Shown here: piece after piece, positions 21,544-26,985 of the stretch
Position numbering within the stretch: the first letter of the stretch is position 1
How the letters are laid out: each line of letters starts with the position of its first letter
IMG/VR virus record: IMGVR_UViG_2579779007_000002
Origin: a virus
Lineage: Duplodnaviria > Heunggongvirae > Uroviricota > Caudoviricetes
Reading direction: 5' to 3' (one strand)
Length of the DNA: 26,985 bases
Translations under genes and position numbers: made by a program
The notes under the pieces: generated by a model
The model's database searches: none
What the model saw: the letters and a program-made list of their open reading frames with translations, nothing else
Told to the model about the DNA's origin: nothing

Positions 21544-21749
21544 CCATTAAGACGGGCCGTCCATACAGAACGGGCCACCCCGGACTTATGCTCCATAATT
21601 CTGACCGCGCTTTTTACCAGTTCCACCGGTGGGTAAGTGATTTCAAGAATCGGACGCGCCACACCGAGATATGATTCATTTACATGACTCCCGCGCGCCT
21701 GTAACCAGTTCTGCGCATCCGTTGCCATTTTTATATTTCGGGCCATCAT
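21522..21749 (-). CDS. small early protein at the kil position
   Basis: 75 aa ORF immediately downstream of B, the slot occupied by kil in Mu; identity not verified. Confidence 0.45.
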
Positions 21750-21764
21750 AATTTCTTCTCCTTC

Positions 21765-22703
21765 TTAATTACGCAGCAGCGTTGAAATATCAACGTCCAG
21801 GTCTAATTCACGGAAAGCCTGACGCAGATAATCTTCGTTAACACGCTCACCTTTACCGTGAGCCGTCATGGCTGCAAGGCGAAGTGAATGATTCAGAATG
21901 CGAAGCGCACCTGGTTTCTGCGCAATCTGCTGTAATAACTCCAGTTCTTTTTCGCCGTTAATCTGCCAGGCATCCGCAATAGCTTTTACATCGGCTTTTT
22001 TGGTTTTATTAATTGCAGTGCGCTTTGCAATACGGGAAAACAGACGGGCAAATTCAACCGTTCTGTTACCCCCCGTCATATTTGAATAAACCCGGTGATT
22101 TCCCATCAGCACAAGGCCAATACGGGTTGATTCCTGTAACAGGCGGAGTTCTTCCAGAACTTCGGCACCAAGATGATCAGCTTCGTCGATGATAACCAGC
22201 CCCTGTGTACCTTCAAGGCGACGTCGCAGGGCGCGGGAGAGCGGCCCTTTACGGCGTGGTGCGTCATTCATTCCCAGCTCAAACGCCAGTTCAGTAAGAC
22301 ATTCCAGAACGCTGGCACAGGATGGCGTAATGGTGATCATCCAGACATTGTTATTGGTGCGGCGATATTCACGGGCCGCTTCGGTTTTGCCCACACCAGG
22401 ATTGCCACATACAACAGCAATACTTTCAGTCAGGCTGGCAAAACGCATACTTGTCCAGATTTGTTTTACCGTCTGCGTTTCCACAAAGCGGGGCGGTTCA
22501 GGTAGTTCTGCAACTACATGATATTTTTCCAGCCAGCGTTGCAGCATTTGTGAAACACGCTCGTTATCCCCGTTGTACTTATCATTGATAAAACTACTGA
22601 TAGTTCCGGTAGAAAGTCCGCTCTCAAGAGCAATTTGTTTAAAGGTGGTTTCTTCATTTTCTACAAGCGTGCGCAGTCCTGCGCGAATATCGGAAATATT
22701 CAT
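21765..22703 (-). CDS. B: transposition ATPase / target DNA activator B
   Basis: 312 aa, same length as Mu B; P-loop GNPGVGKT and DEAD-like IIDEAD motifs; N-terminal helix-turn-helix. Confidence 0.9.
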   Translation of the reverse strand: MNISDIRAGLRTLVENEETTFKQIALESGLSTGTISSFINDKYNGDNERVSQMLQRWLEKYHVVAELPEPPRFVETQTVKQIWTSMRFASLTESIAVVCGNPGVGKTEAAREYRRTNNNVWMITITPSCASVLECLTELAFELGMNDAPRRKGPLSRALRRRLEGTQGLVIIDEADHLGAEVLEELRLLQESTRIGLVLMGNHRVYSNMTGGNRTVEFARLFSRIAKRTAINKTKKADVKAIADAWQINGEKELELLQQIAQKPGALRILNHSLRLAAMTAHGKGERVNEDYLRQAFRELDLDVDISTLLRN

Positions 22704-22741
22704 CTGAATAACCTCGTAATTAAATTTTGTTTAAACGTTAA

Positions 22742-24835
22742 TTAAATGGCTTTTTTACGTCTGTTCTGTTCCAGAATATCCAGCGAATGATTCAGATATT
22801 CATCACGCTCAGTTTCGTATTCATCATCATGCACTTCCTCACACCTCAACGGCTGAACGGTCACCACATTACCAACAGGGCGATAAACATTATCCAGCCA
22901 GGGTTCTGTCGTTTTTTGTTCAATAACCTGAATACCTTCATCCTCAGCATCACGTATTTTTTCCTCAGCACGCTTGCGCATTCCTTTAATACGCTGCTGT
23001 TGTTTGTGATATTCAGCCGTAACAGGAAAGGCTGCGCGTTTATTGCCGTTCCATATCGCCTCACAGATAAAGCTACCGTCCTTACGGCGTACCGTAATTC
23101 GCTCGGCATCGTGAATGTCATAGCTGATAAGTACCTTGCGACCATGTTCATCACGTAGCTCTGGCGCGTAGTAAATATTGTTCAGCCACTGGATTTCGCA
23201 GCGTCTTACCGGACGCTCCACCATCGGGCGGAACATGTCACGCAGCTCAATATCACTCAGCCACTCAATTTCAGTGTCTTCTTCCGCTAAGCGTTTTTTT
23301 CTGAACTCTACCGGGCTGTAATGTTTTCCGTTTGGTTTCATCGGCAATTCAGAATGTGGGCGGTTGTTGTACCACTCCACCCCCTCACGGATAGCCTCAA
23401 TCAGTTCTGACCAGGACGGCAGCTCGCGCATTGCGGCTTTCTGACGGGCGCTCAGTGGCTTGTCCTGTTGCAGGGCATTAAACGCTGAACGCAGATCACG
23501 ATTAAGTATTCGCAACGATTCCCGGTCAGCCCCCTTGCCGAAATAGGTGCGATACCTCCTTGCTATACGCATCGGTAACGTCCGGTTCAGGCGCTCAATA
23601 ATGCCGCGTCCCTGCGGATTTCCCGCAATACCGGTGGGGTGGTTAATCCCCAGGCGGGGCAGAATCCCGACGATCTCTTTATCCAGCATATCTGCCGTTT
23701 CACCGGAACCATTATCCGAGTAATACAGGAATGGTTTTCCGTGATTGCGAATGCCGTGTTGTATCGCCCCGGCAACAGCGAACACGTTCTCCGCAAGATC
23801 AAGACTCCAGCCAACCACAAACCGGGTTCCACCGTCGATCACAAACGTAACTTCCGGTGAAAATGGACGCCCGTGAACCGGATGCGCACATTTCAGCTTC
23901 ATACCGTGACCGTCACCAATCCAGACATAATTCACCGGCATAGCTGTCCAGTCGCGGCGGGTGAATCCTTCAAGCTGACGGTATTCACTGCCGGTAACGC
24001 GCCCTTTTTGTTTCACCACTTCCGGCAGTTTTTTCATGGCATACCGGACAACATCATAGGAAGGCATCACCTCCAGCATGTATGGTTCGTCCGCATGGCG
24101 ACGCTGCCAATCAGCGACAAAATCCTCGTAGGCTTCTGACATAGGCCTGCCGTTAGCCTGACGATACTGCGCCAGAAATTCAGGCAGCCAGCTAATTTCT
24201 TCCGGTTTTATTTCGTCGCGCTTTCCTGGTGCCAGTAACAGCAATCGTTCTGCGGCATTCTGTGCTTTGTTAAACGCAGCTATCCAACGTTTGAGCGTAA
24301 TTGCGCTCAGAGTTCGCTCTTTCCCTTTACGGGCATTAGCAGTAATGACCAAAGATTCCAGGCGTTCTTCCAGGTTACCCTGAGCTAACCGCGACACAAT
24401 AAAACGTATAGCGCTGGCACAACTGAATCCCGGCTCCTGGCTAATTCGTAGAACTTCACAGACAAGAGCAATACGCGCTTCTGCAACTTTACGTTGATTT
24501 TCCGTAAGCGCATTCAGACGCTCTTCTACCAATTGTGGCGAACCGCGATATGCCTCAACAGGCTGTACAACATTTTGTTTGCGTTCACGCTTTACAGGAG
24601 GCTGGGTAGTTATCTCCTGCGGGGCGGTTGCCATCAGTTGAGCTACATGGCGCTCACGTAACGCCCGTTGTGTAACCGGAGGGAGGCAGTCGATGCTGTA
24701 TTCAATGGTTTTTGAACCCGCACGTTTGCGCCTGAAATGCTCAGATGAGGCCAGTTTCCTTATGGAATACCGCACCCCTTGCGCAGTTCCCGGCATACCT
24801 GGTAGCCCTACAAGCTCATTAACTGACACAAACAT
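22742..24835 (-). CDS. A: DDE transposase A (MuA-type)
   Basis: 697 aa; C-terminal end ...ERDEYLNHSLDILEQNRRKKAI matches my recollection of Mu A; N-terminal domain is Mu-type winged helix but divergent in sequence. Confidence 0.9.
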   Translation of the reverse strand: MFVSVNELVGLPGMPGTAQGVRYSIRKLASSEHFRRKRAGSKTIEYSIDCLPPVTQRALRERHVAQLMATAPQEITTQPPVKRERKQNVVQPVEAYRGSPQLVEERLNALTENQRKVAEARIALVCEVLRISQEPGFSCASAIRFIVSRLAQGNLEERLESLVITANARKGKERTLSAITLKRWIAAFNKAQNAAERLLLLAPGKRDEIKPEEISWLPEFLAQYRQANGRPMSEAYEDFVADWQRRHADEPYMLEVMPSYDVVRYAMKKLPEVVKQKGRVTGSEYRQLEGFTRRDWTAMPVNYVWIGDGHGMKLKCAHPVHGRPFSPEVTFVIDGGTRFVVGWSLDLAENVFAVAGAIQHGIRNHGKPFLYYSDNGSGETADMLDKEIVGILPRLGINHPTGIAGNPQGRGIIERLNRTLPMRIARRYRTYFGKGADRESLRILNRDLRSAFNALQQDKPLSARQKAAMRELPSWSELIEAIREGVEWYNNRPHSELPMKPNGKHYSPVEFRKKRLAEEDTEIEWLSDIELRDMFRPMVERPVRRCEIQWLNNIYYAPELRDEHGRKVLISYDIHDAERITVRRKDGSFICEAIWNGNKRAAFPVTAEYHKQQQRIKGMRKRAEEKIRDAEDEGIQVIEQKTTEPWLDNVYRPVGNVVTVQPLRCEEVHDDEYETERDEYLNHSLDILEQNRRKKAI

Positions 24836-24837
24836 TT

Positions 24838-25074
24838 TTATGCCACCTTACGAGCGTAACGGCTGGGCCAGATCTCCTCCGGCGCAACACCAATAGCATC
24901 AGCAATAATGCGCTCATATTTTGGGCATTTGCGGTACAGGGCATTCTTTAAAGAATCCTGGTTTAAACCGGCTTCAATGGACAGAGAGCGTAAAGTAAAA
25001 CCTTTTACATGCACCGCCGCGACAACATGCGCGGGGTGCCAGTCCTGTTTAACAACTTCATTTATAGACATCAT
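24838..25074 (-). CDS. ner: Ner-like early transcriptional regulator
   Basis: Start set at the MM pair (25074) preceded by AAGGA, giving ~78 aa; contains DWH...IIA-A....PE.IWPSRY pattern shared with Mu Ner. Track ORF extends to 25146 (102 aa). Confidence 0.7.
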   Translation of the reverse strand: MMSINEVVKQDWHPAHVVAAVHVKGFTLRSLSIEAGLNQDSLKNALYRKCPKYERIIADAIGVAPEEIWPSRYARKVA

Positions 25075-25254
25075 TCGTTTATCCTTAAAAGTTATCTGTG
25101 CGGATAACACCGCCGGATAATCTCTGCGGATAAAGTATTGATCCACATGTGGTGCATGTAAAGCAAAAATTTGATTTTCTTTTGCCTGATATGGATCGAT
25201 TGTGTTTTCTATTGAAATTATCCTTTTGCATCAATTAGATAAGAGGAAAGAAAA
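25075..25254. promoter_or_regulatory. divergent early/repressor promoter and operator region
   Basis: Three direct (G/C)CGGATAA repeats at 25100, 25113 and 25126 (13-bp phasing); inverted repeat GTTATC-n6-GATAAC at 25091-25108; IHF-like AATCAAATTTTTG (minus strand) at 25164-25176; TTGAAA-17 bp-TTAGAT upstream of the repressor start. Confidence 0.6.
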
Positions 25255-25800
25255 ATGGATAAGCTGAAAGGAAAGTCACTTTCTTTGCCAGAAGTGACAA
25301 AAGAAAGTATCCCGGAGCGTTTGAGAGAATTAATTGGAAAAAGAAGTGTAAGGGCTGCTGCGAAAGATTGGGGGTTGTCGTTTTCCACTTTAAACAATTA
25401 CCTGACGCGAGGTACTGAACCTTCACTCAGTGTGGCTCGGCAGATAGCTGCAATTGAAGGGGTTACTATCGAATGGATATGTGGATCACATGATGATTCA
25501 CATGAGAATCACCCAATTTCAACTAACACGCATAATGAGAATACAAAACTCATTATGAACATCATTAACGCCTTGGATGCAAAGGATATTGAGCGACTAT
25601 CTAAGACTCTTGCCCTCAATGGTGCTAAGTATCTGACTCAAATGTTGGAACCCGAAAATCAAGGCTTACTGCGTCTTGAAGGACGAAAACGTGTCGCCGC
25701 GCTGCTATTAGATGATTTACCTGATGAGCGTATCAGAGAGATTTTGGAAGAAATTGAGAGCAGCAAACTCTCAAGTAGTGTAAAATCGAGAGCGGGCTAG
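25255..25800 (+). CDS. prophage repressor, XRE-type helix-turn-helix
   Basis: 181 aa, divergent from ner/A/B as for Mu c; motif KDWGLSFSTLNNYLTRGTEPSLSVARQIAAIEGVTIEWI resembles Cro/cI-type helix-turn-helix rather than a Mu-type winged helix. Confidence 0.65.
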   Translation: MDKLKGKSLSLPEVTKESIPERLRELIGKRSVRAAAKDWGLSFSTLNNYLTRGTEPSLSVARQIAAIEGVTIEWICGSHDDSHENHPISTNTHNENTKLIMNIINALDAKDIERLSKTLALNGAKYLTQMLEPENQGLLRLEGRKRVAALLLDDLPDERIREILEEIESSKLSSSVKSRAG

Positions 25801-25854
25801 TTCAATTAGCCCGCAGTGAACAGATTTTGAAGGCATTTAAAATGCTAAAATTGC

Positions 25855-26040
25855 AGTAACGCGTAGTATCAAATATTTTTTCGTTTTTAGCTTTCTTTGC
25901 GATGGTAGTATCAAATCGCATGTTGTGCGCATAACACTGTTTTATGTCATAACTGTTTGTTTTATCCCATCAAATCCCGTTTAATCCACTTTCCTCCCGG
26001 ATTTTTCACCAGTATCAAATAATTTACCTCTCTATATTCA
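25855..26040. repeat. prophage left-end terminal repeats (putative transposase binding sites L3, L2, L1)
   Basis: AGTATCAAAT at 25865-25874, 25907-25916 and 26011-26020, all in one orientation; reverse complement of 25990-26010 (...AAAAATCCGGGAGGA...) resembles the Mu left end. Confidence 0.55.
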
Positions 26041-26985
26041 GCTCAGCAGCGCGACCAACAGCACATCTGAAATGCTGGCGGCAACGCCAAAGTCGGTAAA
26101 GGCAGCCTATGACCTTGCTAACGGGAAATATACCGCTCAGGACGCTACGACAGCACAAAAAGGAATTGTCCAGCTCAGTAGTGCAACCAACAGCGCATCT
26201 GAAACGCTTGCCGCGACACCGAAAGCAGTGAAAGCAGCTAATGATAATGCGAATGGTCGGGTACCTTCTGCCCGTAAGGTGAATGGTAAGGCGCTTTCAG
26301 CGGATATAACACTGACGCCGAAAGATATTGGTACGCTTAACTCAACAACAATGTCATTCAGCGGTGGAGCTGGTTGGTTCAAATTAGCAACGGTAACCAT
26401 GCCACAGGCGAGTTCTGTTGTTTCAATTACGTTGATTGGTGGCTCGGGATTTAACGTGGGGTCACCTCAACAGGCAGGTATATCTGAACTTGTTTTGCGT
26501 GCAGGTAATGGTAATCCGAAGGGGATTACTGGTGCTTTATGGCAGCGCACATCGACAGGGTTTACAAATTTTGCCTGGGTCAATACATCTGGTGATACTT
26601 ACGATATTTACGTTGCAATCGGAAATTATGCGACAGGTGTAAATATTCAATGGGATTATACCAGTAATGCCAGCGTGACTATTCATACGTCACCAGCATA
26701 TTCTGCTAATAAGCCGGAAGGGTTAACGGACGGTACAGTTTATTCACTCTATACGCCATCAGAGCAGTTTTATCCGCCTGGCGCACCAATCCCGTGGCCA
26801 TCAGATACCGTTCCGTCTGGTTATGCCCTGATGCAGGGGCAGACTTTTGACAAATCTGCTTACCCGAAACTTGCAACCGCTTATCCGTCAGGCGTGATCC
26901 CTGATATGCGTGGCTGGACGATTAAGGGCAAACCTGCCAGTGGTCGGGCCGTATTGTCTCAGGAACAGGACGGCATTAAATCGCA
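25985..26985 (+). pseudogene. side tail fibre gene, 5'-truncated 3' fragment (runs off window end)
   Basis: Frame open from 25985 to window end with no start codon; from 26036 encodes two tandem QLSSATNS(T/A)[14 protein letters not shown] repeats and ...[68 protein letters not shown], typical of lambda Stf-like fibres. Not in the ORF track because it has no start. Confidence 0.65.

Follow-up and report, generated by a model that had tools for sequence, protein, structure and literature searches.

A contig of an Escherichia coli draft isolate assembly (GCA_000647475.1) carries, in its last kilobase, a lambda Stf-like side tail fibre sequence that has no start codon and that lies directly beside the left end of a Mu-like prophage. 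The locus raises the question of how these two pieces came to be neighbours. The window analysed here, 26,985 nt in length, is the complete contig AQGO01000052.1, which is bounded by assembly breaks on both sides. An earlier sequence-only reading of this DNA had suggested that a transposable phage inserted into the tail fibre gene of a resident prophage, with packaged flanking DNA as an alternative. The answer depends on three points, namely where exactly the phage ends, what the DNA beyond it is and whether the join between the two reflects a single transposition event.

The left part of the Mu-like prophage and its terminus

Most of the window is occupied by the left part (approximately 26 kb) of a Muvirus-type prophage, which is collinear at 98% with complete E. 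coli prophages of 36.1-37.3 kb. After the repressor, ner, A and B, the minus strand continues with kil, gam and mor and the genes for lysis, head and tail, until position 1 interrupts the tape-measure gene midway. The tail, fibre, gin, com and mom genes and the right end of the prophage (approximately 10-11 kb) are located on other contigs. No obvious repeat is found in 1-1350, where the contig begins within the tape-measure gene, and a second related Mu-like prophage in the genome, or low coverage, may be responsible for this break. The phage features on which the argument relies are the following:

1 to 26036, minus strand: left part of the Mu-like prophage, approximately 26 kb
21765 to 22703, minus strand: transposition ATPase B, 312 aa, with AAA_22 and Phage-MuB_C domains and 99.5% nucleotide identity to Mu B
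22742 to 24835, minus strand: DDE transposase A, 697 aa, with the Pfam domains Mu-transpos_C and HTH_Tnp_Mu_1
24838 to 25074, minus strand: ner-like early regulator, 78 aa (PF13693 HTH_35, E=2.9e-25)
25255 to 25800, plus strand: repressor, counterpart of Mu c, 181 aa, in the same position with respect to ner and A as its Mu counterpart and reading towards the left end
25801 to 26036, minus strand: left end (attL), with the terminus ...CTCTCTATA at 26036, as in 13 other insertions, and three copies of a motif
25863 to 25874, 25905 to 25916 and 26009 to 26020, plus strand: the three copies of the motif GTATCAAAT, from a repeat search

A DDE transposase with a MuB-type ATPase, a ner gene and a divergent repressor are thus grouped at the left end, as in Mu. 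The HTH_3 domain of the repressor scores slightly under the Pfam cut-off (21.5 versus 23 bits, E=2.4e-4). The transposase is 28% identical to MuA over residues 305-697, and its residues D308, D374 and E414 align with the catalytic residues D269, D336 and E392 of MuA. At the C-terminus, the last 29 aa are identical to those of MuA and 33 of the 38 final residues match. A mosaic joint is located within the transposase gene, in the region 21561-22852, and the stretch 21561-22832, comprising part of kil, the whole of B and the final 90 nt of A, is 99.5% identical to Mu. The exact B protein (WP_028132626.1, E. coli) is on record solely from contig AQGO01000052.1.

The boundary of the phage had been placed near 25985, just after an in-frame stop codon at 25982-25984. 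The stop codon is indeed present (TAA), but the boundary has to be moved. The left terminus of the phage is position 26036 (...ACCTCTCTATA), 52 nt past that stop codon, and the first host base is 26037. This position was defined by comparison with 13 other insertions, consisting of three complete genomes in which the left end is 99.2-99.3% identical and ten contigs retrieved through their identical repressor protein. The sequence ...CAAATAATTTACCTCTCTATA is common to all 14 sequences, including the window, and similarity ends at the very next base. Similarly, ...TACCTCTCTATA stands at the terminus in the window and at the 13 other loci, after which the flanks are unrelated. Fourteen different flanks follow ...CTCTATA, among them ycjP, ppsR, mscM and ten other unrelated sequences, and five more were found in relatives. 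One and the same terminus is therefore joined to many unrelated insertion sites, as expected of a Mu-like phage.

The 236 nt between the repressor stop codon and the terminus contain the three copies of the motif TTTGATAC, which reads GTATCAAAT on the plus strand. The motif is also present three times at the right end, and its outermost copy occupies nt 18-25 counted from each terminus. In Mu, transposase-binding sites L1-L3 and R1-R3 lie at the two ends, a layout that the arrangement of the motif resembles, and TTTGATAC is probably the transposase-binding motif of this phage.

The fibre fragment and its intact counterpart

Beyond the terminus, the plus strand encodes the fibre sequence, which belongs to a longer open frame:

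25985 to 26985, plus strand: start-less chimeric frame in which 17 phage-end codons run in frame into the fibre fragment; it does not represent a separate gene
26037 to 26985, plus strand: lambda Stf-type side tail fibre fragment, 949 nt, of which all but 3 match stf of E. coli F163

The translation of 25985-26985 comprises 333 codons without a stop. Because the terminus lies between 26036 and 26037, the first 17 codons (25985-26035) are Mu-like end DNA and not fibre. As had been noticed from the sequence, no ATG precedes the fibre sequence. The frame has its first ATG at 26072, from which the source annotation calls a partial CDS of 304 aa. No Shine-Dalgarno-like sequence was seen upstream of this ATG, and a scan of 24800-26985 for promoters and terminators returned nothing exceeding the shuffled background.

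The earlier assignment to a lambda Stf-like fibre is well founded. Positions 26037-26985 are 99.7% identical to stf of E. coli F163 at the nucleotide level, with the three differences leading to one amino-acid change, and the fragment contains two Phage_fiber_2 repeats (PF03406, E=8.8e-35) and a Collar domain (PF07484, E=2.8e-12). The intact F163 gene is 2,916 nt long and encodes a protein of 971 aa (WP_213850272.1) with an N-terminal PF08400 domain (residues 1-134), three Phage_fiber_2 repeats and a Collar domain. Its neighbourhood, in the order tail assembly, J-like tail tip, Lom, fibre and TfaR, is the J-lom-stf-tfa arrangement of lambda. A comparison with lambdoid fibre genes had been proposed as a check. 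In a megablast search with 25700-26985, matches were found in 3,760 of 5,426 complete E. coli genomes, the best of them at 99.4-99.6% identity, and the best 30 of the 3,760 share the same query start point and are all annotated as 'prophage tail fiber N-terminal domain-containing protein'.

Like other lambda Stf-type fibres (WP_213850272.1 and its relatives, StfR of Rac and Stf of lambda), the window copy has Phage_fiber_2 repeats followed by Collar in the distal half. In contrast to F163 Stf, it is without the first 512 codons, PF08400 included, and without the last 143 codons. The break at codon 513 accounts for the missing PF08400 domain, and the window copy is thus a gene fragment rather than a complete member of the family. 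Position 26037 corresponds to nt 1538 of the intact gene (codon 513), where the second fibre repeat begins, and the cut falls directly after KGIV. The fragment had been described as the C-terminal part (approximately 315 aa) of a fibre. The fibre identity and the length, 316 codons, stand, but the fragment covers residues 513-828 of 971 and is internal, since the contig ends 143 codons before the stop codon. On the 5′ side it is truncated by the phage insertion, on the 3′ side by the end of the contig.

That the fragment could be the Mu-like phage's own fibre was considered and rejected, as no nucleotide similarity links the flank to the late regions of two relatives (one complete, the other represented by a fibre-end region of 17 kb). 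In a separate observation, the protein searches returned more than 100 clusters of 'partial tail fiber' proteins of 43-128 aa, many of them on contigs of 200-400 bp, a few of which bear the label of Klebsiella, Staphylococcus or Pseudomonas. Assembly debris commonly derives from the Phage_fiber_2 repeat unit, which may also give rise to cross-sample contamination.

Probable insertion into a resident prophage and its alternatives

The exact phage terminus on one side of the junction and the interior of an stf gene on the other support, from this one junction, the proposal that a transposable phage inserted into the fibre gene of a resident prophage. The identical terminus at 13 other unrelated chromosomal sites argues that the fibre DNA belongs to the target rather than being cargo of the phage. 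A transposition of the phage into stf accounts for all of these observations. We estimate at roughly 80% the probability that the Mu-like phage transposed as a simple insertion into stf of a resident lambdoid prophage. In such an event, strand transfer by the DDE transposase would have placed the phage in the stf gene of a lambdoid prophage residing in the E. coli chromosome, with TTCA, in stf codons 513-514, where the second fibre repeat begins, as the target. The left end of the phage, with its repressor gene pointing outward, would then adjoin the 3′ part of stf, and the 5′ part, ending in ...GTTCA, would adjoin the right end, approximately 10-11 kb past the contig start.

Simple insertion is the rule among the complete genomes, where seven of eight copies of the prophage have both halves of the target and a 4-bp duplication. 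The eighth copy, in FDAARGOS_1059 (NZ_CP066032.1, 4019224-4056425), has ycjP at its left flank and a pseudogene of an SDR-oxidoreductase near ycjY/pgrR/mppA at its right flank, with no shared duplication (CCTC versus TAAT). The two flanking regions lie roughly 20 kb apart in K-12, and the locus looks like a prophage-associated deletion or rearrangement of roughly 20 kb. With one of eight copies rearranged in its flanks, it is possible that the second junction is rearranged here as well, and the estimate given above allows for this. The left junction would then be real but the element would not be a simple one, an adjacent deletion, an inversion or a replicon fusion having separated the right end from the 5′ part of stf; we consider this unlikely, though it deserves to be kept in mind.

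Two further explanations are very improbable, even taken together. The assembler could have joined the phage end to a fibre fragment that is not adjacent to it in the genome, and the setting invites this suspicion, given a draft contig with assembly breaks at both ends, one of them inside the multi-copy stf, and fibre-repeat debris contigs of 200-400 bp that are very common in E. coli assemblies. A misjoin driven by repeats would not, however, coincide to the base with a terminus defined independently in 13 other insertions, and this coincidence makes a chimeric contig improbable. Nor does the phage end resemble stf, or the flank the late regions of the two relatives, at the sequence level; for the latter reason, a join made by the assembler through fibre homology was rejected. 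Fibre DNA could otherwise have been packaged with the phage, as the variable end of a virion, or carried by it as left-end cargo. Host DNA is indeed present at both ends of Mu virions, and in the record of Yersinia phage vB_YpM_5 the two ends are separated by approximately 80 nt of foreign DNA. The alternative of packaged flanking DNA is nevertheless scarcely credible for this locus: the sequence comes from a bacterial genome assembly, the flank measures at least 949 nt against the 50-150 bp of host DNA packaged at the left end of Mu, and fibre DNA follows the terminus in none of the 13 other copies.

The same junction was looked for elsewhere. None of the 5,426 complete E. coli genomes has a locus covering at least 80% of 25700-26985, and the 44-nt junction sequence has no exact match in the viral or genome contig collections. 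The predicted right junction, AAAGGGATAGTTCA(N0-1)TAAAGCGCGCAAAATC, was not found in the genome or metagenome contig collections. At the protein level, the truncated 5′ Stf is predicted to end in ...KGIVHKARKII. A search with this chimera, in which 513 aa of F163 Stf precede the 7-aa tail, returned solely Stf proteins of 735-910 aa, mostly labelled partial, and a search with its last 66 aa plus the tail returned solely proteins of 43-128 aa, mostly fibre-repeat fragments from very short contigs.

Under simple insertion, the fibre gene would be inactivated, because a split stf can no longer give a full-length fibre. Lambda tolerates the loss of Stf, and its laboratory strain has a frameshift in stf. 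The resident prophage, enlarged by approximately 37 kb in its late operon, would probably be left without a packageable genome: an insert of 37 kb between cos-bounded ends would exceed the lambdoid packaging limit, so that a previously functional resident would be disabled. The rest of the resident prophage is outside the window, and the fibre gene could hence belong to a decayed remnant instead of a functional prophage.

Termini, target duplication and related phages

The comparison of insertions also bears on how phages of this lineage end. At the right end, host DNA is followed by TAAAGCGCGCAAAATCATTTGATACC... (host, then TAAAGCG...), and at the left end, ...CTCT(C/T)(T/C)ATA is followed by host DNA. 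Both termini are thus TA, as opposed to the TG...CA of Mu. The earlier reading had expected a 5-bp target duplication, as for Mu. In this lineage the flanking repeat is instead exactly 4 bp in all seven simple insertions:

ppsR, strain O111 12A: CGCG
mscM, strain JCKP02: CTTA
patD, strain S6: TTAA
rlmB, strain TD225-C4: TATC
ydcO, strain 1290: TCAC
epimerase gene beside ybjT, strain RM8082: TTCG
glpT, strain WS1933D: GGCT

The intact ppsR site of K-12 shows exactly four bases that are doubled on insertion, and the intact mscM site, which has one base different in the repeat, is still consistent with a 4-bp duplication. A 5-bp duplication with shifted termini, or a 6-bp duplication with replaced terminal bases, was considered and rejected, as neither fits the K-12 ppsR and mscM sites or the other five insertions. 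Since 4 bp was found in seven of seven simple insertions, the copy in the window is expected to have the following duplication:

26037 to 26040, no strand assigned: predicted copy of the 4-bp duplication TTCA, with an intact target reading ...GGGATAGTTCAGCTC

Accompanying it, the second junction would be expected to read ...GGGATAGTTCA followed directly by TAAAGCGCGC... We give even odds to the general proposal that this E. coli/Yersinia lineage, with a transposase approximately 28% identical to MuA, uses TA...TA termini and a 4-bp target stagger. The termini and the length of the duplication are the sole unusual features of the phage lineage.

In other respects the prophage is close to Mu (NC_000929). 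It shares with Mu the gene order c, ner, A, B, kil, gam, mor, lysis, head and tail, near-identity (99.5%) in B and in the terminal 90 nt of A, three putative transposase-binding sites at the left end and quasi-random insertion. It differs in its transposase, which is only 28% identical outside the C-terminal tail, in its end sequences, which are unrelated save for a short stretch, and in having TA...TA with 4 bp, as found in the lineage, rather than TG...CA with 5 bp.

The closest sequenced free phages are Yersinia phages vB_YpM_5 and vB_YpM_6 (MT374853/MT374854; PMC10434027), with 96.9% identity over 22000-26031. Their ends are of the same type (left ...CTCTTCATA, right TAAAGCGCGC...), but theirs are virion genomes and the repressor region differs (two-piece match, 70% query cover). 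Because both were isolated as phages and share these ends, the comparison suggests that this type of end and transposase belongs to viable phages. As for the 'circular' vB_YpM_5 genome in MT374853.1, its left and right ends are joined through approximately 80 nt of unrelated DNA, which probably represents host DNA that was packaged and that the assembler collapsed, so that the record would not be a true circle.

TA-TA termini have been described as unusual in prophages of Leptospira, in which the duplication is 6 bp, and their existence in other bacteria was posed as a question (PMC8705779). The Leptospira prophages are likewise of the Mu type, approximately 38 kb long, with TA at both termini, but they are unrelated in sequence and their 6-bp duplication, also reported for B3, differs from the 4 bp seen in the insertions of the present lineage in E. 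coli. If the proposal for this lineage is true, TA-TA transposable prophages exist outside Leptospira, which would answer that question.

A Mu-type prophage within a lambdoid prophage is also known from Stx2c_JNE082796 (LC727881.1; Microb Genom 2023, PMC10132054), whose transposase gene is approximately 81% identical to that of the window. There, the depositors marked a 4-bp 'duplication due to insertion of Mu' (GATG), so that a duplication of this length was already annotated in GenBank. The element is Sp18-like and has TA at its right end but CA at its left end, whereas the window lineage has TA...TA. Moreover, its target is another ORF of the Stx phage and not stf, and both junctions were sequenced, against one here. 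A literature search on 4-bp duplications in Mu-like phages found no paper describing or explaining them. The combination of TA...TA termini with a 4-bp duplication may interest students of transpososome geometry.

The insertion of a Mu-like phage into another prophage is an already known kind of event, and the window is one more instance of it. In closed genomes of CC119 STEC, six of ten Mu-like phages were found inside mobile elements and several Stx phages had Mu-like insertions (PMC10132054); LC727881.1 and LC727895.1 annotate insertions of this kind. For annotation, the fibre fragment should be treated as an interrupted gene from a second prophage and not as part of the Mu-like phage, two elements that prophage-prediction tools tend to merge, and the repeat to expect at the second junction is 4 bp, not 5 bp. 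If the resident prophage was functional, an insertion of 37 kb in its late operon would disable it and would amount to a simple knockout of one phage by another.
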